From Okeania sp. (GTDB lineage: Bacteria > Cyanobacteriota > Cyanobacteriia > Cyanobacteriales > Microcoleaceae): 32,000 nucleotides of DNA. Position numbers and translations under genes: made by a program. The DNA lies in contig NZ_JAYKGW010000155.1 in assembly GCF_035285525.1 (NCBI RefSeq), positions 3,225 through 35,224 on the forward strand. Reading direction: 5' to 3'. The notes under the pieces were generated by a model. It made no database searches. It was not told the DNA's origin and saw only the letters and a list, made by a program, of their open reading frames with translations. This document shows, in pieces, positions 7,696 through 32,000 of this stretch; the stretch's first letter is position 1, and every line of letters starts with the position of its first letter.

Positions 7696-7971
7696 TAACT
7701 AGGGCTTGCTGAAAAAGTCTTTTTGTCAGAGGAGAATCCAGGAGAAATGAGAAATGAGAAACATAAAAGAGTAGGGACCTTGGATGCAAGTTGCGTACAA
7801 AAGAATCAACATTATGATTTTCTGCCCCTCGAAATTCCCAAAATCCTAGAATGCATAATTTTTCGGGAACCGTACTGGAATCACCTAAAAGCTGGTACTT
7901 TATTAGTCTCTGTAAAAGCTGAAATCTTTACCAGTAAACACTTTTATATTTACATACGCAAACCCTAACTA
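7696..7971. mobile_element. MITE, TAGGGTTTGC-terminus family (diverged copy) inserted between minC and minD
   Basis: Left end TAACTAGGGCTTGCTGAAAAAGTCTTTTTGTCAGAGG and right end ...CATACGCAAACCCTAACTA are inverted. The interior block CACCTAAAAGCTGGTACTTT...AAAAGCTGAAA is shared with the copies at 14392 and 17507. Confidence 0.65.
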
Positions 7972-9041: not shown

Positions 9042-9208
9042 AGAGTATGGGTTATTTTCTATCTTTTCTTATGGTTTAGATGAGCATATTATATAATCAT
9101 TAGTCCAGAGTTTGGTTATTGTGTTATTTAGATTTTTTTACCATAAGATACAGCAGTAGTCAAGTTATAATTTCAAGTCGTAAAGGGTAAGGCAGAAGGC
9201 AGGAGGGT

Positions 9209-9347
9209 GTAGGGGAGTAGGGGGAGTAGGGGAGTAGGGGGAGTAGGGGAGAAAGATTCTGGTTGGGTTTCGCATTTCCATGCTCCGCAACCCTAAAGGG
9301 AACAACCCAACCTATATTGAACCATTTAAGGTGTGTCAGTCTAGTAG
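9209..9347. repeat. Composite repeat: GGGGAGTA-type short tandem array, GGTTGGGTT...AACCCAACC hairpin and CATTTAAGGTGTGTCAGTCTAGTAG module
   Basis: GTAGGGGAGTAGGGGGAGTAGGGGAGTAGGGGGAGTAGGGGAG is followed by AGATTCTGGTTGGGTTTCG...CAACCCAACC and CATTTAAGGTGTGTCAGTCTAGTAG. The same three-part order recurs at 25705-25838. Confidence 0.75.
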
Positions 9348-11031: not shown

Positions 11032-11061
11032 TTGTCATGTTTAAGTAAGAATGGCTATAGT
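11032..11061 (+). promoter_or_regulatory. Candidate sigma70-type promoter of PEP-CTERM gene A
   Basis: TTGTCA, 18 nt, TATAGT. The sequence is conserved in copy B (13299-13328). It would give a ~280-nt 5' leader. Confidence 0.35.
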
Positions 11062-11316
11062 GTATTTGTCAGGGAAAAAAAAGTTAACTAACCCTCCAAA
11101 ACCAGGAAAAGAACTGCAAGCTTCTATCTACGAAAATATCTAAATAAACTAATCATTGATGTCATCATTACTGACTGAATAGTAAGAGTAGCTATTGTCT
11201 GTATGTCAGTGAAAAAAAAGTTAACTAACCCTCCAAAATCAGGAAAAAAACTTCAAGTTTCTGTCTACACAAATATCTGAAGAAACTAATCATTTACCTC
11301 ATAATTACTGAAAAAA
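11043..11316 (+). repeat. Two tandem 137-bp leader modules upstream of PEP-CTERM gene A
   Basis: Unit 1 (11043-11179) and unit 2 (11180-11316) share [A/T]AGTAAGA.T.GCTAT.GT.T.T.TGTCAG.GAAAAAAAAGTTAACTAACCCTCCAAAA.CAGGAAAA..AC...CAAG.TTCT.TCTAC..AAATATCT.AA.AAACTAATCATT......CAT.ATTACTGA. Confidence 0.8.
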
Positions 11317-13610: not shown

Positions 13611-14237
13611 ATGAAAAACCAAATCGTTGCTTCCATTCTTTCTGTTCCTTTTGCTTTAGGTGCTGCTGTATTCGCTACTACTGGTGCTGCTAATGCTGCT
13701 TCTTTAAGTGGTAGTTTCCAATTTGATGGTTCAGGCGATCCTCCAACTACCCTTATTCTTACCGATGATCAACTTGATTTCAATCCTGATGATGCACAGC
13801 TTGACCTCAAACTACAAACAGAAAGTTTTACATCTTTTGATTCTGCTTTCATTTATGACTTAGAAAACCCAGTTAATCCTAATCCTAGTTTATTTATCGA
13901 TTTAGGCGATCAAGATGGTGAGAACCTTTTATATGTTAACAACATAGGAGAATATGTCTATACTGGTGTTGGTTTGTCAACTATTATAGGTATTTCATTC
14001 GATGGTTTCTTTGAGAGCACCACTGGTGAAATATCACAGGCAACAGGTTTAATTAGTCTCACCGCAAACGATACTGTTGCAAATGTACAAAATGCTGTAG
14101 AAAATGGTACTGGTATTCAGGCAAGTTTCACTGGTTTTAGTGTTGCTACTACTTCTGTTCCTGAACCAACTACATTATTTGGTCTAGGTGTTGTTGCTAC
14201 AGGTTTAGTTGCTAGTCGTCGTAAGAAAGATGCTTAA
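13611..14237 (+). CDS. PEP-CTERM sorting-domain secreted protein, paralogue B
   Basis: Signal peptide MKNQIVASILSVPFALGAAVFATTGAANA and C-terminal VPEPTTLFGLGVVATGLVASRRKKDA. A GGAG lies upstream of the ATG. Confidence 0.9.
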   Translation: MKNQIVASILSVPFALGAAVFATTGAANAASLSGSFQFDGSGDPPTTLILTDDQLDFNPDDAQLDLKLQTESFTSFDSAFIYDLENPVNPNPSLFIDLGDQDGENLLYVNNIGEYVYTGVGLSTIIGISFDGFFESTTGEISQATGLISLTANDTVANVQNAVENGTGIQASFTGFSVATTSVPEPTTLFGLGVVATGLVASRRKKDA

Positions 14238-14391: not shown

Positions 14392-14637
14392 TAATTAGAG
14401 TTTGCGCTTCTTCAGTCTTTTAGTAGCGGGGAGGAGCCAGAATCGAGCAATCCAGAAGGAATGGTCATTACAGAAGAGGTAGGAGGAAGAATTATCCCTT
14501 GATTTTCTGTCACAATTAGCCAAAAATACTAGACTTTTTAGCTTTCAAGATCTAAAAGCTGGTACTTTTTCCCGACTAAAAAAGCTGACACCTTTATCTA
14601 TTAATGCTTTCATGCTTTTTTCACAGACCCTAATTAA
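14392..14637 (+). mobile_element. MITE, TAGGGTTTGC-terminus family, copy flanking the PAD-like gene (3' side)
   Basis: TAATTAGAGTTTGCG...CACAGACCCTAATTA. The central ~110 bp (TCCAGAAGGAATGGTCATTACAGAAGAGGTAGGAGGAAGAATTATC.CTTGATTTTCTGTCACAATTAGCCAAAAATACTAGACTTTTTAGCTTTCAA) differs by one base from the copy at 17507-17758. Confidence 0.8.
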
Positions 14638-14784: not shown

Positions 14785-14937
14785 GTTAACATTAACTTAG
14801 GTTGAATTATCAAAAAATTGATTCTGTTTATGCTAATGAGTTAATAACTGGAGTCTTGCCCAAGCATAGCACTATTTTTAGGAATTGGTATAAAACAAAT
14901 GTAGAGTCTCTCCAATTACTGAGGTAAAGTTAGTTTT

Positions 14938-15001
14938 CTTCTTTTCTTCTTTTCTTCTTTTCTTCTTTTCTTCTTTTCTTCTTTTCTTCTTTTCTTCTTT
15001 T
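14938..15001. repeat. Perfect octanucleotide microsatellite (CTTCTTTT)x8
   Basis: Eight uninterrupted units are read directly. The array ends one base before the complement of the PAD-like gene's TAG stop (15002-15004). Confidence 0.95.
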
Positions 15002-17293
15002 CTACTCCCTATTCCCTAAAAAAGATTTCCAGAAAGAATAATTTTTTCCTAAACGAGTTGTATTCGTAGCATCCTGAACATTGCCTTTCAATTCTTGATA
15101 ATATTTATCGTCCATAAAATTAATATTTAAACTAGAATCAGCCACCAATCTCCGGAATTTTTCCTCAGTATAATCTCTCCCATTAATTAATGCTCCTCCA
15201 GGATTGGAAACCAATAATTCTCCATTAATCGCTACCGAATTAACCATATTCGGCCACCAAGCATAACCGCTATATCCAAACATTGCTGGCACTCTAATTA
15301 TCTGTTGATCAGTCAGATTAAATTCCTGTTTTAACTTCTCTATTAATGGATTTATTTTTTCCCTTTGTAAATAGAGATTATGCTCAATTAATCTAGTATT
15401 TTTTAAAGTAGCTCTTACTGTTGTTTGAGTGCTTGAACCACGATTTATAGCAGCTTGACCATAACCTTGTTGACTCAATTCTTCTAATAATTTAACCCCC
15501 GCTTCTGGACTCACAATTAACATTAATGGTTTGCCAAATTTGCTAGGAATAAAATTAATAATTTCATCAACATGACGAATCATTAACCAAGAAGTATCAA
15601 TATCAACTGGCGGACCTTGAACTTTCTGTGCTTTAATAAAGTCAATAATTTCAGGATTCATACCTACTTCTCCTGCTTTACCATAATATATTCTTCCCAT
15701 CGGATATCCTGGTAAAGATGGTGTCACCTCCAGATTTCCATAACCATCCACCCATCTATTTAGAGGATCAAGTCGTCTAGGTTGACCAACTTCAAACCAA
15801 CCAAAATTTTCTTTGAGAAGACTGAGAGAATATTGGTCATTTTCCCCCTCACGATTAGCTTTGAGGACCACATTCATATTATGGAGCTGACCTTGACTGG
15901 GAAACTGCACATAACCTATTTCTTGAGTGTCTTGCATCCAGGTAGTGCCACCAGGATTAATTTTTGCTGTGGCACCTGTTTTTTCAATAATTTCTCTAAT
16001 TTTATTAATAAACTCTTCATTGGCAAAACCACGATCGCTCACATGAAGTTCTTTGACTGGAGCAGTATTAGGAGACATTAACCAAGGAACCACACCTATT
16101 TGAATACTATCAGTAGCAATTTGTTGACCATTTTTTTCAGCGATCGCCTTCAAATTAACTACTCCTTTCCAGTTGCGATCAGCAAATTGTTTTGCTTCTA
16201 CACCTAATACTATTTTATCCCCAGGTATCAAAGCTTCAATGCCAGAAATATCTACTCTTTCCCATCCATATTCTGTTTTTTGGAAAACATTGATATAATC
16301 ACTAACATTTGCATCTGTAGAAATATAAATTTGAGCATCCCGATAAGTTTCTGCCAATTGAATATTAATCATAGCTAAATCTGCTACATCACTTTCACCA
16401 TTAACATATTGATCTTCCCAGTCTGGAATGAAATCATTGTTATCATCATCATTATTAAATAACATCAACGCACCTGTTGATAAAGACCATTTTTCTCTAT
16501 CTGACTTATCAGTTTCATCCAGTTTCCCATCTCTGTTAGTATCACCATAAATTGTGAAACCAGGGGATAAACTATATGCAATAGGTGAATGAGTTTCAGT
16601 ATTATTATTTATTTGATTTTCTGTATCTTCTTCCCATGCTCTTGCTGCTATTACTTTTTCATAACAAGCAACTGCTAAATACCCCTGGTATTCTATCATT
16701 TTTTCAATCGCTCGATCTGTCATCAATGAATCTTGAGGTATTTGTCGCAAAGTTTCAATTGCCTCTAACCATAAATTTTCTGCTTCTTGCCATGTTTGAT
16801 AATTTGGCTGTTTATTTTTTCCTTTTGCTACTGCATTAGTTGCTATGCTCAGTGCTTGTTTCCAATTTTCAACAGCTTTTTCTTCTTTAATAATTCTTGC
16901 TTCTAAACTACGGAAATCTTTCAAAGTTTTTTCATATTGTCGCACTTGAAATTGGTATTGCCAAGGTTCTATTTTATTTTGAAAATTTGGCATTTTAGAT
17001 ACTTTATCAAGTTCTTTTTTTAGTTGGTTTTTAACCTCGTAAAGTTCTGGTAGAGAAGTTATTTGTTCAGGAATTTTTATACTGTTATTTGCCAAATTAA
17101 TAGTTTCTAACAAAGAAACTTCTGAACTTTCTGGTTGAAGAAGTGAAGATTGTGCTACTGCTTGAGGCATAGGTATCCAAATAATTCCTACCAATGCTCC
17201 CACAGTATTAACTAGAGCTATTTTAACGTATCGCATCCAACCCATAGTATAAATCCTTTCTAAGAAACCTATAATAATCTCTAAAGTATACAA
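15002..17293 (-). CDS. Secreted peptidylarginine deiminase (PAD) family protein with the active-site Cys substituted (predicted pseudo-deiminase)
   Basis: 763-aa ORF. PAD_M and catalytic-domain motifs align by eye to human PADI4: VVPWLMSPNT, TWMQDTQEIGY, YGNLEVTP, YPMGRIYYG, IRHVDEIINFIP, WWPNMVNS, ALINGRDYTEEKF. The nucleophile motif is GNVQDATNTTR where PADI4 has GEVHCGTNVRR. A signal peptide follows the internal Met17/Met20 (MRYVKIALVNTVGALVGIIWIPMPQAVA/Q), so the true start may be 17245 or 17236. Confidence 0.85.
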   Translation of the reverse strand: MYTLEIIIGFLERIYTMGWMRYVKIALVNTVGALVGIIWIPMPQAVAQSSLLQPESSEVSLLETINLANNSIKIPEQITSLPELYEVKNQLKKELDKVSKMPNFQNKIEPWQYQFQVRQYEKTLKDFRSLEARIIKEEKAVENWKQALSIATNAVAKGKNKQPNYQTWQEAENLWLEAIETLRQIPQDSLMTDRAIEKMIEYQGYLAVACYEKVIAARAWEEDTENQINNNTETHSPIAYSLSPGFTIYGDTNRDGKLDETDKSDREKWSLSTGALMLFNNDDDNNDFIPDWEDQYVNGESDVADLAMINIQLAETYRDAQIYISTDANVSDYINVFQKTEYGWERVDISGIEALIPGDKIVLGVEAKQFADRNWKGVVNLKAIAEKNGQQIATDSIQIGVVPWLMSPNTAPVKELHVSDRGFANEEFINKIREIIEKTGATAKINPGGTTWMQDTQEIGYVQFPSQGQLHNMNVVLKANREGENDQYSLSLLKENFGWFEVGQPRRLDPLNRWVDGYGNLEVTPSLPGYPMGRIYYGKAGEVGMNPEIIDFIKAQKVQGPPVDIDTSWLMIRHVDEIINFIPSKFGKPLMLIVSPEAGVKLLEELSQQGYGQAAINRGSSTQTTVRATLKNTRLIEHNLYLQREKINPLIEKLKQEFNLTDQQIIRVPAMFGYSGYAWWPNMVNSVAINGELLVSNPGGALINGRDYTEEKFRRLVADSSLNINFMDDKYYQELKGNVQDATNTTRLGKNYSFWKSFLGNRE

Positions 17294-17338
17294 TTCTCTA
17301 TTTTATTCGAGTTTCAATGAGAATTGTTTAAATATTTT

Positions 17339-17454
17339 AGGACTTACGCAGAAACCGGGTTGATCAGACAATTTTTCGGGAACCGTATTTCCTGGTTTGA
17401 ACCACAATATCACAGGCCAAAACCCGGTTTCTTGGTGGCGCGTGCGTAACTCCT
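17339..17454. repeat. Hairpin-ended small dispersed element (class b)
   Basis: AGGACTTACGCAGAAACCGGGTTGAT...AACCCGGTTTCTTGGTGGCGCGTGCGTAACTCCT. Confidence 0.8.
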
Positions 17455-17506
17455 GTATTTAATTTACACAAATAGAAAACTAACTGCTATCCTTAGCCAA
17501 ATTTAG

Positions 17507-17758
17507 TAATTAGGGTTTGCCTAAAAAGTCTTTTAGTAGGGAGGAGGCTCCAGAATCGGTGAATCCAGAATCCAGAAGGAATGGTCATTACAGAAGAGGT
17601 AGGAGGAAGAATTATCTCTTGATTTTCTGTCACAATTAGCCAAAAATACTAGACTTTTTAGCTTTCAACACCTAAAAGCTGGTACTTTTTCCTGACTGAA
17701 AAAGGCTGAAACCTTTATTTAATGGTGCTTTTATGCTTTTTTCAGCCAGCCCTAATTA
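17507..17758 (+). mobile_element. MITE, TAGGGTTTGC-terminus family, copy flanking the PAD-like gene (5' side)
   Basis: TAATTAGGGTTTGCCTAAAAAGTCTTTTAGTAGGGAGG...TTTTTTCAGCCAGCCCTAATTA, in the same orientation as 14392-14637. Confidence 0.85.
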
Positions 17759-18644: not shown

Positions 18645-19400
18645 CTAATTTGGTTTTACCCAATTAGCTGTTTCTAGATTATTCGCACTAGCTCCATTAT
18701 TAGGTAACTCTAAACAGTAACCAGCACCGTATACTGTTTTAATAAATCGAGGATGACGAGGATCTGGTTCCATCTTCGTTCTCAAATGTCTAATATGGAC
18801 TCGAATCGTCTCAATATCATCATCTGGATCATAACCCCAAACTTCCTTGAGAATTTCACTAGGAGATACTGTTTGGCCATGACGTTGCAATAAACAGTGG
18901 AGTAACTCAAATTCTAAATGAGTTAGTTTAACTGTTTGATCAAACCAAATAGCCTCAAACCTTTCTGGAACTAAAGTCAGAGGGCCATAACTGAGTATTT
19001 CGCTATGTTTAGCTGCTTGAGGAATTCGATCTGTCCGTCGCAGTAAGGCACGCACTCTTGCTAATAATTCTTCAACTTCAAAAGGTTTTGTTAAATAATC
19101 ATCTGCTCCAGAATTGAAGCCTTCTACTTTATCTTGGGTTTGACCCAAAGCAGTTAACATCAATATAGGAATATCTGCTGTCCGTTCATCACGACGCAGA
19201 CGTTGACATACCGTAAACCCATCTACTTTTGGTAGCATTAAATCTAATACTATCATGTCTGGTAATAGTTGCAAAGCTAGGGCTTGCCCTTTTATACCAT
19301 CCTCTGCTTGACTAACTTCATAGCCAGCCATTTCTAGGTTTACGGCAACGAGTTCTGCGATCGCAGGATCATCATCAATGACGAGTATTCTAGGCATCAT
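18645..19400 (-). CDS. rpaA: OmpR-family response regulator RpaA (circadian/global output regulator)
   Basis: The protein matches remembered Synechococcus RpaA over almost its full length: [127 protein letters not shown]...[68 protein letters not shown]. Confidence 0.9.
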
Positions 19401-23885: not shown

Positions 23886-24308
23886 TTAACTATCAGATGA
23901 CTTATCACCTATTAGTTGATCTTTCCAAGCTTGAATTTCTTTTGATAACTCCTGGCGATTAGAAGCAAGAAGTAGATACCGATAAACAAACCAACCAGAA
24001 TAGATAATACCAATTAACTCAAAGGTTGGAGCTAGTAGTGGAATATCATTTAATGATTCAACTACTGCGAACATTACCTTGAAAATAATAATTGCTCCTA
24101 GAATTATACCCAGAGTAATGATTGGCTTTTGATATTTTCCAAAAAAGCCAGCAATAATTATTGGTAGTTCTGATAAGATTTCCAAGAATTGGTTTTTGAT
24201 ATCTTGAAATTGATCAGATTTTTCTTCAGAACTCTCTACTGTAACTAGAGAACTTGTCTCTGTAGAACTTACTCCTAATTTCTGTGTAGTATCTTCTTTC
24301 TCTTGCAT
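23886..24308 (-). CDS. CAAD-domain thylakoid membrane protein (CurT/CURT1-like)
   Basis: Acidic N-terminus, two closely spaced TM helices (PIITLGIILGAIIIFKVMFAVV, ELIGIIYSGWFVYRYLL) and a C-terminal amphipathic helix NRQELSKEIQAWKDQL. This is the typical CAAD/CurT architecture. Confidence 0.75.
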   Translation of the reverse strand: MQEKEDTTQKLGVSSTETSSLVTVESSEEKSDQFQDIKNQFLEILSELPIIIAGFFGKYQKPIITLGIILGAIIIFKVMFAVVESLNDIPLLAPTFELIGIIYSGWFVYRYLLLASNRQELSKEIQAWKDQLIGDKSSDS

Positions 24309-25540: not shown

Positions 25541-25838
25541 ATTTAAGGTGTGTCAATCTAGTAGGGTGCGTTACATTTCATTAACGCAGCGCATATCCTG
25601 TATATTTAGGTGGGTTGGGTTTATAGACGATGGCTGTATTTCGGTGCGTTACGGAAGTGCGGCTAACGCACCCTACTGGACTGACACACCTACAAATGTG
25701 CATTAGGGAGTAGGGGAGTAGGGAAGTAGGAAAGTAGGGGAGTGGAGGAGTAGGGGAGAGAGATTATTGTTGGGTTTCGGGTTCCTTAACCCAAAAATAA
25801 TCTATTGCATCATTTAAGGTGTGTCAGTCTACTACTAG
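25540..25838. repeat. Composite repeat: ~160-bp inverted-repeat element, GGGGAGTA-type array, GGGTT hairpin and CATTTAAGGTGTGTCAGTCTACTACTAG module
   Basis: CATTTAAGGTGTGTCAATCTAGTAGGGTGCGTTAC (25540-25574) pairs with TAACGCACCCTACTGGACTGACACACCTACAAATG (ending 25698), about 30 of 34 positions. Then come GGGAGTAGGGGAGTAGGGAAGTAGGAAAGTAGGGGAGTGGAGGAGTAGGGGAG, TTGTTGGGTTTCGGGTTCCTTAACCCAA, and a second CATTTAAGGTGTGTCAGTCT module. Confidence 0.75.
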
Positions 25839-26048
25839 ATAAAATCAATAGTAGGGGAGGGTTTTAGCTAGAATTTTAATGCTTACTCTCAGACTTACAT
25901 AAACCCGCCCTCATGCACAAAATTAGTTACGGTAGTTTACTAAAATTTTTGCTATTTTTTTGTACAAAGTTTGACATAATTAGCATCTGCTGAATAAATA
26001 TAGCTGAATAAATATAAAAGTATTCAGAGATAAAGATTTCAGTATTTT

Positions 26049-26263
26049 TATGGTCAGAAAAAGTGCAAGTTTTTAGGTGGCTAAGGTTCAAAACCTGAGC
26101 ATTTTAGATTCACACTTGAGGTGAAAAATTAAGAGACAATTCTTACTTATAGGTAATCTATAACTTTCATTCCTCCTAAATTCTTCTCCTGGGATGGGTT
26201 AGGGGTGGGTTTACTCCCTACTCCCTACCTTAACAAAAATACTTTTTCAGCAAACCCTAATTA
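26049..26263 (+). mobile_element. Partial MITE (right end only) immediately upstream of purL
   Basis: It ends ...ACTCCCTACTCCCTACCTTAACAAAAATACTTTTTCAGCAAACCCTAATTA, identical in layout to the right end of 18269-18537. I found no matching left terminus, and the left boundary is approximate. Confidence 0.5.
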
Positions 26264-29317: not shown

Positions 29318-32000
29318 TTATCCACTAATGAAAAATTCTCCTATCGTTCCTACTGGGCTTTTGCTAAAAGTCGTACTGGAGGTTTGAAAACTTCTACAGG
29401 GATTCCCACCAGTGTTTGTTTTGGTTTCCTGAAATCTTTACTAGAAGTAATAGATACGGAAAAACCAGAATATTTAGTCATTGCTTTTGATTTAGCAGAA
29501 CCTACTTTTCGTCATAAAGCTGATATTAATTATAAGGCAGATAGACCTAAGCCTCCAGAAAATTTAATTATTGATTTAGAAAATTGAAAGGAGCTTTTAA
29601 ATGCTTTTAATTTAAAAGTTATTACTTTTCCTGGTTATGAAGCTGATGATATATTGGGAACTTTAGCACGAAAAGCTAGTGCTGTTGGTTGGCGAGTAAA
29701 AATTCTTTCGGGAGACCAAGATTTATTTCAATTAATAGATGTAGAAAAAGGTATTAGTCTTTTACATTTACCTGGGGGTAAAGGTAGTACACCTAAAGAA
29801 TTTTTGGCTGAAGAAGTGAAGCAGAAATTGGGAATTTTGCCGAGTCAAGTTGTTGATTATAAAGCTCTTTGTGGAGATAAGTCTGATAATATTTCTGGTG
29901 TTAGAGGGATAGGGGAAAAAACTGCTAGTAAGTTGTTGAATGAATATGGCTCTCTAGGAATAATTTATCTTTATATAAATAAAATTGAAGAAGTAAATCG
30001 AAAAAAGTTAGTAGCAGGAAAAGCTGATGCAGAACGTTCTGAGTTTATAGCAGTAATAGAAGTAAACGTGCCGTTAAATATTAGCATAGAATAGTTTTGA
30101 ATAAAAAGATTTTCTCGGTCAAAAATTGAACCTGTTTTGCAAAGGCTAGAATTACAAAATTTTCTCAATCAAATTCCTAATTTAGAACAGCAGTTTGATA
30201 GGTTAGCTAGAGTTAAGTCTTGGCCGGATGAATCAGAAAATAACCAACCATAAAAATCGACAAATACTTTTGTTAAAGTAGAAAGTGATGATTGTTTTTT
30301 CAGCACCGAAGATCAAAAGATAGCTCAGCAACAAATTTCTATAAAATCAGAAATTCCGCCTCAAATTATTGATACTCCAGAAAAGTTAAAGGAGTTAGTA
30401 AATATTTTAAAACCACAGAGAAATTTTCAGACTCCAGTTGCTTGGGATACGGAAACAACATCTTTAGAACCGAGAGATGCTGAGTTAGTTGGAATAGGTT
30501 GTTGTTGGGGAAAAAATATAGAGAATGTTGCCTATATTCCGACCGGACATAAAATTGGAAAAAATCTGGATAAGGTGATAGTATTGGAAGCTTTAAAGCC
30601 AATTTTGGAAAGTGCCGAACATCCGAAAGTTTTTCAGAATACTAAGTTTGATAGATTAGTTTTTCGGTGTCAAGGAATTAAATTAGCTGGAGTGGTTTTT
30701 GACACAATGTTGGCAAGTTATGTATTAGATCCTGGAGCCAAACATAGTCTGGAAGAAATATATATTAGATATCTCAGATATCTGGAAATAAGTTGACGAA
30801 GTTATAACGATGTAGTCTCCAGAAATCAAACTATTGCTGACCTAGATATTGGGAAGGTAGCTGACTATTGTGGTACTCAAGTTTTTGTGACTTTTCAGTT
30901 AGTAGAAAGATTAAGAACAGAATTAGAAAAAGCGGATAAAAATCAATCTACTGAAAAGTCTTTGTACAAATTATTAGTAGATATAGAACAACCTTGAGAA
31001 GTTGTTTTAGTCGAAATTGAATTTCAGGGAATTAAGATAGATATTGAATCTCTGAAAAAATTATTAGTTCAACTGAGAAATCTTTGTCTAAATTATTAGT
31101 AGATATAGAACAACCTTGAGAAGTTGTTTTAGCCGAAATTGAATTTCAGGGAATTAAGATAGATATTGAATCTCTGAAAAAATTATTAGTTCAACTACGA
31201 AAAGATAAAGATGCTGAGCAAAATCAATCTGCTGAAAAGTCTTTGTCTAAATTATTAGTAGATATAGAACAACCTTGAGAAGTTGTTTTAGCCGAAATGG
31301 AATTTCAGGGAATTAAGATAGATATTGAATCTCTGAAAAAATTATTAGTTAAACTACGAAAAGACAAAGATGCTGAGAAAAATCAATCTACTGAAAAGTC
31401 TTTGTACAAATTATTAGTAGATGTAGAACAACCTTGAGAAGTTGTTTTAGCCGAAATTGAATTTCAGGGAATTAAGATTGATATTGAATCTCTGAAAAAA
31501 TTATTAGTTAAACTACGAAAAGATTTAGAAGAAATTGAAAAAAGAGCTTGTCAAACAGTAGATATTCAAATTTTACAAGAATATCTGAAGACAGAAATTA
31601 ATAAAATAGATTCTAATTCATTTACCAATCAACAAGAATTAAAAAAAACAATATCTAGCCCTATACTCAAAGCATATATCAGTAAATTATCAAAAGAGCA
31701 AAGACAAAATTCAGCAACTATTGAAAAAGAAATAAATCAAACAGAAACCAGCGACTTATTAAACCTAAACTCTCCATCTCAATTAAGCGAATTATTGTTT
31801 CAAATTATCAGTCAAAATCAGAAAAAAACTCGCCAAATAAAAACAGGTTATTCCACCGATGTAGTAGTCTTATAAAAATTACAAACAGAACCAGAACATC
31901 ATCCTATTATTGATGAAATATTAAATCATCGAACCTTATACAAACTCTTTTCTACCTATGTCGAAGCCATACCAAAATTAGTTCGTTCAGATACTCAAAG
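29318..32000 (+). pseudogene. polA: DNA polymerase I pseudogene (continues past the right edge)
   Basis: PolA homology is continuous: FAKSRTGGLKTSTGIPTSVCFGFLKSLLEV, PTFRHKAD..YKADRP, GYEADDILGTLA, ILSGDQDLFQLID, CGDKSDNISGVRGIGEKTA, AWDTETTSLEP, FQNTKFD, DTMLASYVLDP, LNLNSPSQLSELLF, KTGYSTD, HRTLYKL.STYV. It is interrupted by in-frame stops at 29585, 30092, 30098, 30251, 30794, 30995, 31117, 31276, 31435 and 31873, and by one frameshift near 31070. The N-terminal VDGHSLAFR motif is degraded to STNEKFSYR. Confidence 0.9.
30936..31524 (+). repeat. Four tandem copies of a 159-bp (53-codon) unit inside the polA pseudogene (copy 1-to-2 spacing 122 bp because of ~37 bp of deletion)
   Basis: The marker CAACCTTGAGAAG recurs, with its TGA at 30995, 31117, 31276 and 31435 (spacings 122, 159, 159). 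The units encode ...NQS.EKSL.KLLVD.EQP*EVVLAE.EFQGIKIDIESLKKLLV.LRKDKDAE. Confidence 0.95.

Follow-up and report, generated by a model that had tools for sequence, protein, structure and literature searches.

Protein-arginine deiminases (PADs) have been studied mainly as citrullinating enzymes. Guanidino-modifying enzymes of the pentein superfamily act via a covalent S-alkylthiouronium intermediate on the catalytic cysteine that corresponds to Cys645 of human PAD4. The superfamily also contains an exported bacterial protein acting on peptidyl-arginine, PPAD of Porphyromonas gingivalis, which is related to agmatine deiminases and not to the PF03068 PADs, is Ca-independent and has a catalytic Cys. 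Human PADI6 has Ala at the catalytic Cys position, retains the Asp/His/Asp residues and is inactive in vitro on standard substrates; it is a structural component of the oocyte cytoplasmic lattices and is maintained by selection (PMC11402830). The main text of Cummings et al. describes all catalytic residues as fully conserved across PADI homologues, with no mention of cysteine (PMC8826395). The alignments and trees of that study nevertheless contain sequences from Trichodesmium, Lyngbya, Arthrospira and Planktothrix, and these lack the Cys (PMC8826395 supplement). We found no description in the literature of a Cys-less cyanobacterial or Trichodesmium PAD pseudoenzyme. Here, we analyse a gene on the reverse strand of a 32,000-nt stretch of an Okeania sp. 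genome (hereafter the window, to which all coordinates refer). It encodes a PAD-like protein in which the PAD4 His644-Cys645 pair is replaced by Gln740-Asp741, and which most likely belongs to a clade-wide family of exported PAD pseudoenzymes in the Oscillatoriales that had passed without comment, the H740Q change being private to it. Residue numbers are those of the 763-aa open reading frame (ORF) that begins at an upstream TTG, with PAD4 numbering used where stated.

The PAD-like protein is a genuine homologue of the PAD_M and PAD catalytic (pentein) domains, far beyond chance. Both domains are recognised by Pfam (Table 1), in agreement with the homology to the PAD middle and catalytic domains proposed in the preliminary description of this DNA, and the same scan gave no match to PAD_N (PF08526), the N-terminal domain of cupredoxin-like fold. 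No meaningful match was obtained in an NCBIfam scan of the protein. When the PDB was searched with phmmer, the best solved relatives were human PAD4 (4.5e-51), PAD3, PAD2 and PAD1 (down to 1e-48), with PADI6 a much weaker match than PADI1-4 (E 2.8e-22). An AlphaFold2 model computed with 50 homologues as input has a predicted local distance difference test (pLDDT) score of 81.7, and matches human PADI4 (8r8u_A) in Foldseek with an E value of 3.3e-46, a template modelling (TM) score of 0.73 and a root-mean-square deviation of 2.6 Å. The least confident part of the modelled catalytic domain is the loop matching PAD4 368-388, which holds Ca2 and R374 (pLDDT 62-67).

Residues were mapped from PAD4 to the PAD-like protein by profile (HMM-based) alignment, using a PAD4 reference fragment rebuilt from the HMMER alignment, the numbering of which was verified at the known catalytic and Ca-binding positions. 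The catalytic tetrad of the PAD enzyme (EC 3.5.3.15), Asp350/His471/Asp473/Cys645, is incomplete: the first three residues are present as D455, H574 and D576, and Cys645 is replaced by Asp741. The profile alignment reproduces what had been read by eye for these positions and for His644-Cys645, and both the ORF and the cag and gat codons given for Gln740 and Asp741 are confirmed in the sequence. The pocket residues W347 and R372 of PAD4 are retained (W452 and R481 respectively), and the substrate-binding R374 has become G483. No other Cys in the fold could serve as the nucleophile, as the only Cys of the protein, C210, is located in the N-terminal helical region outside the PAD domains, and PAD_M and PAD_C contain none. 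Given that the nucleophilic Cys is gone, conventional Cys-dependent deimination is not expected, a point on which the preliminary description holds. Ca1 (PAD4 Q349, E353 and E411) is kept, as are all of the Ca3-5 residues (PAD4 N153, D155, D157, D165, D168, D176, D179 and E252, the last being E366 here). The Ca2 site is lost, with E351, D369, S370 and N373 replaced by T456, K478, A479 and E482 respectively.

In comparison with human PADI4, PADI2 and the three-domain cyanoPADI of Cyanothece 8801 (PMC8826395), conservation of D350/H471/D473, Ca1 and Ca3-5 is common to all, whereas the PAD-like protein has no PAD_N, has lost the Ca2 site, reads Gly for R374 and Asp for C645, and falls on a separate branch. 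It is furthermore predicted to be exported, and not cytosolic or nuclear. The closest functional analogue is PADI6, which likewise combines a PAD fold with a non-Cys residue at the catalytic position. This is an analogy only: PADI6 arose independently within the vertebrate three-domain clade, and the PAD-like protein is not its orthologue. PADI6 has lost its Ca sites, keeps flanking cysteines and is cytoplasmic, whereas the clade described below keeps Ca3-5 (and Ca1 in the case of the Okeania protein), has Cys-free PAD domains and is predicted to be exported.

The preliminary description regarded a Cys-less member as unusual, yet the Cys is missing from an entire monophyletic clade that extends over many genera of the Oscillatoriales. 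Of the nearest homologues (the best 120 of 5.8 billion clusters), 118 are full-length and all 118 lack it, the remaining two ending before the motif. The position is occupied by D, S, T, G, A, Q or N within an otherwise conserved motif, YYQEL.GN..x[AG].NT. The Cys-less homologues originate from Dapis, Okeania, Trichodesmium erythraeum IMS101, Lyngbya, Capilliphycus, Planktothrix, Arthrospira, Kamptonema and Microcoleus, and the clade belongs to filamentous cyanobacteria of the Oscillatoriales/Microcoleaceae. When 1.84 billion 50%-identity representatives were searched exhaustively with HMMER, 991 PAD representatives were recovered at E<=1e-10, which hints that PAD genes are not as rare in bacteria as had been stated, the library carrying no taxonomy. 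The full D-H-D-H-C set is present in 137 of the 150 matches listed, which are more distant 50%-identity representatives. The others are mostly fragments ending before the site, the exceptions being two representatives of the clade of the Okeania protein and a small independent Cys-to-Arg group. This group (the metagenomic P0164, P0167, P0201 and P0256) has Arg at the catalytic Cys position, in the form of H-R or Y-R, with some members also lacking D473 or H471, and is a second, unrelated Cys-less lineage.

In a neighbour-joining (NJ) tree, all Cys-less proteins form one clade (bootstrap 96/100) with the Cys-keeping P0121 ("Microcoleus sp. FACHB-68") as its sister (99/100); Zarconia (100/100) and then the Sodalinema/Phormidium OSCR protein P0124 branch beyond. 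Within the clade, the subclade with Asp at the Cys position (Trichodesmium, Okeania and Dapis; D-subclade) has a bootstrap of just 67/100. PAD4 groups with P0173/176/185/186/189/192, representatives that keep the Ca2 site, distant from the Cys-less clade. In published trees, the sequences from Trichodesmium, Lyngbya, Arthrospira and Planktothrix fall with the two-domain bacterial PADIs (PMC8826395 supplement). On account of the missing PAD_N, the lost Ca2-site residues and a tree position with the two-domain bacterial PADs, the PAD-like protein is placed in this branch, outside the three-domain "animal-type" clade, Clade Ai of PMC8826395, to which it had initially been assigned. A search seeded with P0121 revealed independent Cys-to-Ser/Thr changes in the Cys-keeping sister group (P0298, P0302-P0304; Oscillatoriaceae bacterium SKW80), showing that thiol loss is recurrent in the exported cyanobacterial PAD lineage.

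A scan of GTDB species genomes yielded 186 relatives, and 80 of these loci were retrieved, from approximately 10 genera including T. erythraeum IMS101 (locus L007; NC_008312, ~7.515-7.517 Mb); the coding sequence was extracted for 32 of the 80. The nearest locus is that of Dapis sp. BLCC M229 at 84% identity, which makes the source organism of the window a relative of Dapis, and the Dapis/Okeania/Trichodesmium members overall are 77-84% identical to the PAD-like protein. All 32 extracted sequences are uninterrupted ORFs of about 724-902 codons that end in the family C-terminal motif. The Zarconia navalis protein (L064), at 44% identity, retains both His-Cys and the N-terminal helical domain. 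A single candidate for an active paralogue beside a Cys-less protein was encountered, in Oscillatoria sp. Prado101 (L054), and proved to be the Cys-keeping P0121-type protein itself. The clade can be defined by an export segment, a four-helix domain, PAD_M and PAD_C, with a non-Cys residue at 645 and Gly at 292 (PAD4), all of which are found in the Okeania protein.

The maximal ORF (15002..17293, reverse strand, 763 aa) opens with TTG. The true start is almost certainly the ATG that encodes Met17, since AGGA is located 8 nt upstream and the same start is seen in all orthologues and in P0001, a database protein of 747 aa that is identical to the PAD-like protein and begins at Met17. Of the two residues from which a signal had been proposed to start, Met17 and Met20, it is the former that stands. 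By eye, the N-terminal segment would be a Sec-type signal peptide cleaved after A-V-A: a positively charged n-region is followed by a 16-residue hydrophobic core and then by P-M-P-Q-A-V-A and, beyond the putative cleavage point, Q-S. Across genera, the segment is conserved far beyond what is typical of cleaved signal peptides, with an invariant Gly and near-invariant Trp/Tyr/Asn, for which reason it may be a functional membrane anchor. The Cys-keeping sisters likewise open with hydrophobic segments, suggesting that export is ancestral. The export segment precedes the helical region that, as had been proposed, takes the place of PAD_N: AlphaFold2 confidently models four long helices here (pLDDT mostly >90). 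No Pfam match was obtained for this four-helix domain, and a PDB fold search with it returned generic helical bundles alone (best E 0.15) and no functional clue. The Cys-keeping relative from Zarconia has this domain as well (blastp 1e-13), and P0121 and P0124 lack it.

Selection was assessed by Nei-Gojobori estimates of the ratio of nonsynonymous to synonymous substitution rates (dN/dS) between the Okeania gene and 14 orthologues, with triplet-based estimates of omega for individual branches. The whole-gene dN/dS is 0.15-0.26, with regional values of 0.08-0.26 for the export segment, 0.31-0.44 for the helical domain, 0.14-0.31 for PAD_M and 0.16-0.17 for PAD_C. The Okeania branch has an omega of 0.26-0.38 and is approximately 3 times longer than the Dapis sister branch (omega 0.14-0.24); the lineage is somewhat faster and slightly relaxed, yet clearly constrained. 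The 14 close orthologues show no variation at D455, H574, D576, W452, R481 and D741. Each of the 16 other D-subclade sequences in the alignment, all from separate assemblies, has GAT at codon 741, whereas codon 740 is CAG in the Okeania gene and CAT or CAC in the 14 closest orthologues, a single third-base change. The Gln-Asp pair, treated in the preliminary description as one event, thus separates into two when the orthologues are aligned as had been proposed there: Asp is common to all close orthologues, Gln is not shared. Asp741 is old and conserved in the Trichodesmium/Okeania/Dapis subclade, Q740 alone is private to the Okeania lineage, and H740Q is a minor further drift at an already unconstrained position.

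Conservation across the entire clade provides a second view. We compared 25 non-redundant Cys-less proteins with the 137 Cys-keeping PADs at the 31 sites that are at least 93% conserved in the latter. The Cys-less proteins retain 28 of these 31, and only H644, C645 and D155 (PAD4) are released. Among the remaining catalytic positions, conservation in the Cys-less clade (n=25) is 0.76 for D350, 0.72 for H471 and 0.92 for D473, and R372 (PAD4) falls from 115/137 in the Cys-keeping PADs to 8/25. The subclades carry distinct signatures at D350/H471/D473/H644/C645, namely DHD(H/Q/R/G)D, DHSYT, GHDY(S/T), DQD(N/H)A, DQDQS, ENDHS, AHDHS and DHDQG. As the subclades differ in their loss of D350, H471 and D473, no catalysis is likely to be shared across the clade, and this absence of a common catalytic set is the main argument for a shared function that would be non-catalytic. 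The Cys-keeping two-domain cyanobacterial PADs (P0121; Zarconia navalis LEGE 11467/Geitlerinemataceae; P0124) resemble the Okeania protein in having PAD_M, PAD_C and an N-terminal hydrophobic segment, are 44-60% identical to it and have nearly all of the clade-conserved residues in common with it, but retain His-Cys (D-H-D-H-C). Compared with 16 Cys-keeping sisters, the Cys-less clade has newly fixed only R292 to Gly (25/25) and W141 to Leu (23/25; PAD4 numbering), G400 and L271 in the Okeania protein; the R292 position is Arg in 99/137 of the Cys-keeping PADs. With just two positions newly fixed, there has been no wholesale remodelling, and the Cys-less protein looks like its sister enzymes minus catalysis.

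We consider the PAD-like protein to be a selected, non-deiminating pseudoenzyme, with a probability of roughly 0.7. Of the three readings offered in the preliminary description, the pseudoenzyme or neofunctionalised one fits best. The nucleophilic Cys would have been lost once, at the base of this old, monophyletic group of exported two-domain PADs, and the protein would no longer deiminate arginine. Following Sec-dependent export to the periplasm, cell envelope or lumen, the Ca2+-stabilised PAD fold and the conserved orphan four-helix domain would act in binding or scaffolding. In the Trichodesmium/Okeania/Dapis subclade, the pocket would present three carboxylates (D455, D576 and D741) together with H574. 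The mode of action we favour, tentatively, is the non-turnover binding of a guanidinium/arginine-bearing or otherwise cationic ligand, because the pocket keeps W452, D455, R481, H574 and D576 and gains D741. The fold and the Ca3-5 site, and in the D-subclade also Ca1 and D455/H574/D576/W452, are kept under purifying selection. Several points weigh against a selected pseudoenzyme. Export and cleavage are read by eye from the N-terminal sequence; the loss of activity is deduced from what is known of the Cys thiolate intermediate in the pentein superfamily; the neighbourhoods of the 80 loci reveal no gene order conserved across genera that would point to a partner or ligand; and the invariance of D741, D455, H574, D576 and R481 in the 14 close orthologues could also reflect a catalytic site that is retained in altered form.

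A structural or scaffolding role in common with the Cys-keeping sisters, for example in envelope or filament architecture and with the pocket unused, overlaps with the pseudoenzyme model and is a possibility we hold at well below even odds. It would account for the small number of newly fixed residues, for the erosion of pocket residues in several subclades, for the strong conservation of the hydrophobic segment and four-helix domain, and for the restriction of the clade to filamentous Oscillatoriales, and it has a precedent in PADI6 as a structural lattice component (PMC11402830). A pure scaffold does not, however, require the pocket residues that are invariant in the D-subclade, and no partner was found in the neighbourhoods of the 80 loci.

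The same invariant residues, the GAT codon in 16/16 other D-subclade sequences and the PAD_C dN/dS of approximately 0.16 would be in keeping with an enzyme of altered chemistry, in which Asp741 or a water activated by it, together with H574, D455 and D576, hydrolyses or transfers a guanidino-type group without a thiol intermediate. We regard this as unlikely. The nucleophile position varies between D, S, T, G, A, Q and N across the clade, sister subclades with the same architecture and conservation lack other catalytic residues, and the D-subclade itself has low bootstrap support (67/100). To our knowledge, no enzyme of the pentein superfamily relies on a carboxylate as its nucleophile, and mutating the Cys of PADs to Ser or Ala abolishes activity, both of which count against this chemistry.

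Early gene decay, or pseudogenisation in an eroding genome, was the third reading of the preliminary description, which had seen in the substitutions a possible first step. The long Okeania branch with its somewhat raised omega, the private H740Q change, the replacement of the C-terminal tail at the point at which a tandem repeat meets the gene, the absence here of a downstream gene conserved in 16 relatives and the low coding density of the window could all be cited in its favour. It is nevertheless rejected as very improbable, because dN/dS is well below 1, on the Okeania branch as well as in every domain, and frames are intact clade-wide, including the uninterrupted 747 codons of the gene itself. 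Moreover, the Cys loss is far older than this genome, and the replaced tail falls in a region of variable length across the family. That the Gln-Asp reading is a sequencing or assembly artefact has a negligible probability. The one point in its favour is that Q740 is unique to this genome; against it, a Logan assembly of run SRR19514071 matches window positions 14974-17579 at 100% identity (2606 bp, possibly from the same source reads), and GAT is found in the separate assemblies of the D-subclade.

At the 3' end of the gene, homology to the orthologues stops at 15021, and the last 6 codons (…SFLGNRE) replace a tail of approximately 20 residues. We place no functional weight on this replacement because tail length varies across the family. 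The replacement codons contain the octamer GGGAGTAG, which is also arrayed in tandem at 9205-9251 and 25706-25758. The gene is bracketed by a direct repeat of ~233 nt (Table 1), with weaker copies at 1888-2010, 7885-7930 and 26005-26076, and the same repeat family occurs in the Dapis/Okeania/Trichodesmium loci. Long-period tandem repeats occur at 11044-11311 and 30950-31523 (137 nt x2, and 122/159 nt x2-2.8 at 95-96% identity). Approximately half of the 32-kb window is taken up by ORFs of 100 aa or longer, which would fit the repeat-rich genomes of low coding density in the Trichodesmium group. A promoter and terminator scan found no more sites than in shuffled sequence, the one terminator-like hairpin, at 14778-14762, being weak, and an Rfam scan of the window gave no match.

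Upstream, approximately 9 kb are syntenic with Dapis, Okeania and Trichodesmium, comprising the OmpR-type regulator, three unannotated ORFs, aroA and the ORF at 23886-24308. Downstream synteny is broken in the window: a 145-aa same-strand gene that is located 3' of the PAD-like gene in 16 related loci (L001 12487-12924) left no trace in the window by tblastn. Convergent with the PAD-like gene is a 208-aa ORF (13611-14237, forward strand) that carries a PEP-CTERM sorting motif at its C terminus (Pfam 1.9e-4, marginally above the cutoff). In the neighbourhoods of the 80 loci, synteny is kept solely within genus groups, with no cross-genus partner. The Microcoleus/Tychonema loci (L050-L080) have two small ORFs upstream of the Cys-less PAD gene and, in that genus group only, a 308-aa Pro/Thr-rich ORF and a 990-aa ORF ~1.8-5 kb downstream. 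By eye, we take the small pair to resemble a toxin-antitoxin pair and the 990-aa ORF to resemble PutA (proline/pyrroline-5-carboxylate (P5C) dehydrogenase). PutA is part of the cyanobacterial arginine-proline catabolic route.

Table 1. Positions of the PAD-like gene, its mapped domains and residues, and adjacent elements in the window.
Feature	Position	Strand	Details
Coding sequence of PAD-like protein	15002..17245	-	747 aa from ATG 17245-17243; stop TAG 15004-15002
Shine-Dalgarno-like GAAAGGA	17254..17260	-	8 nt upstream of ATG; read directly from sequence
Hydrophobic export segment (putative)	17153..17245	-	residues 17-47: MGWMRYVK / IALVNTVGALVGIIWI / PMPQAVA/QS; by eye
Clade-specific N-terminal four-helix domain, in place of PAD_N	16607..17053	-	residues ~81-229; AlphaFold2 helices
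PAD_M (middle, Ig-like) domain	16148..16543	-	residues 251-382; PF08527 1.9e-8
PAD catalytic (pentein) domain	15026..16120	-	residues 392-756; PF03068 4.8e-63; Foldseek to PADI4
Acidic Ca3-5 cluster, kept	16379..16456	-	N280, D282, D284, D291, D294, D302, D305; profile alignment
D455 = PAD4 D350 (guanidinium-binding Asp), kept	15929..15931	-	profile alignment
H574-V-D576 = PAD4 H471/D473, kept	15566..15574	-	profile alignment
Q740 + D741 replacing PAD4 H644-C645	15071..15076	-	cag 15076-15074, gat 15073-15071; sequence and alignment
Perfect (TTTTCTTC)x8.8 tandem array	14934..15003	.	abuts stop codon of PAD-like gene
~233-nt dispersed intergenic repeat, downstream copy	14414..14637	+	sequence comparison
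~233-nt dispersed intergenic repeat, upstream copy	17527..17758	+	88% identical overall; 136-nt core 96%
OmpR-type response regulator	18645..19400	-	syntenic upstream neighbour in Dapis/Okeania/Trichodesmium; by position only

The Cys-less proteins are named 'protein-arginine deiminase (family protein)' in the database, an annotation that probably mis-states their activity and that recognition of the clade corrects. The clade offers a bacterial system in which to study the role of the PAD fold without catalysis, the question posed by PADI6, and the natural pairing of Cys-keeping and Cys-less sisters (Zarconia and P0121 versus the clade), with few fixed differences between them, is suited to mechanistic dissection. 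A bolder proposal, which we consider rather doubtful, is that the clade, including the model diazotroph Trichodesmium erythraeum, maintains an exported, non-citrullinating PAD fold that would serve as a Ca2+-dependent arginine/guanidinium reader in the envelope or, in the Asp741 subclade, as the first thiol-free pentein enzyme. In either case, these proteins would be the first lineage of PAD pseudoenzymes to be described in bacteria, and mammalian PADI6 would have a natural counterpart in them.

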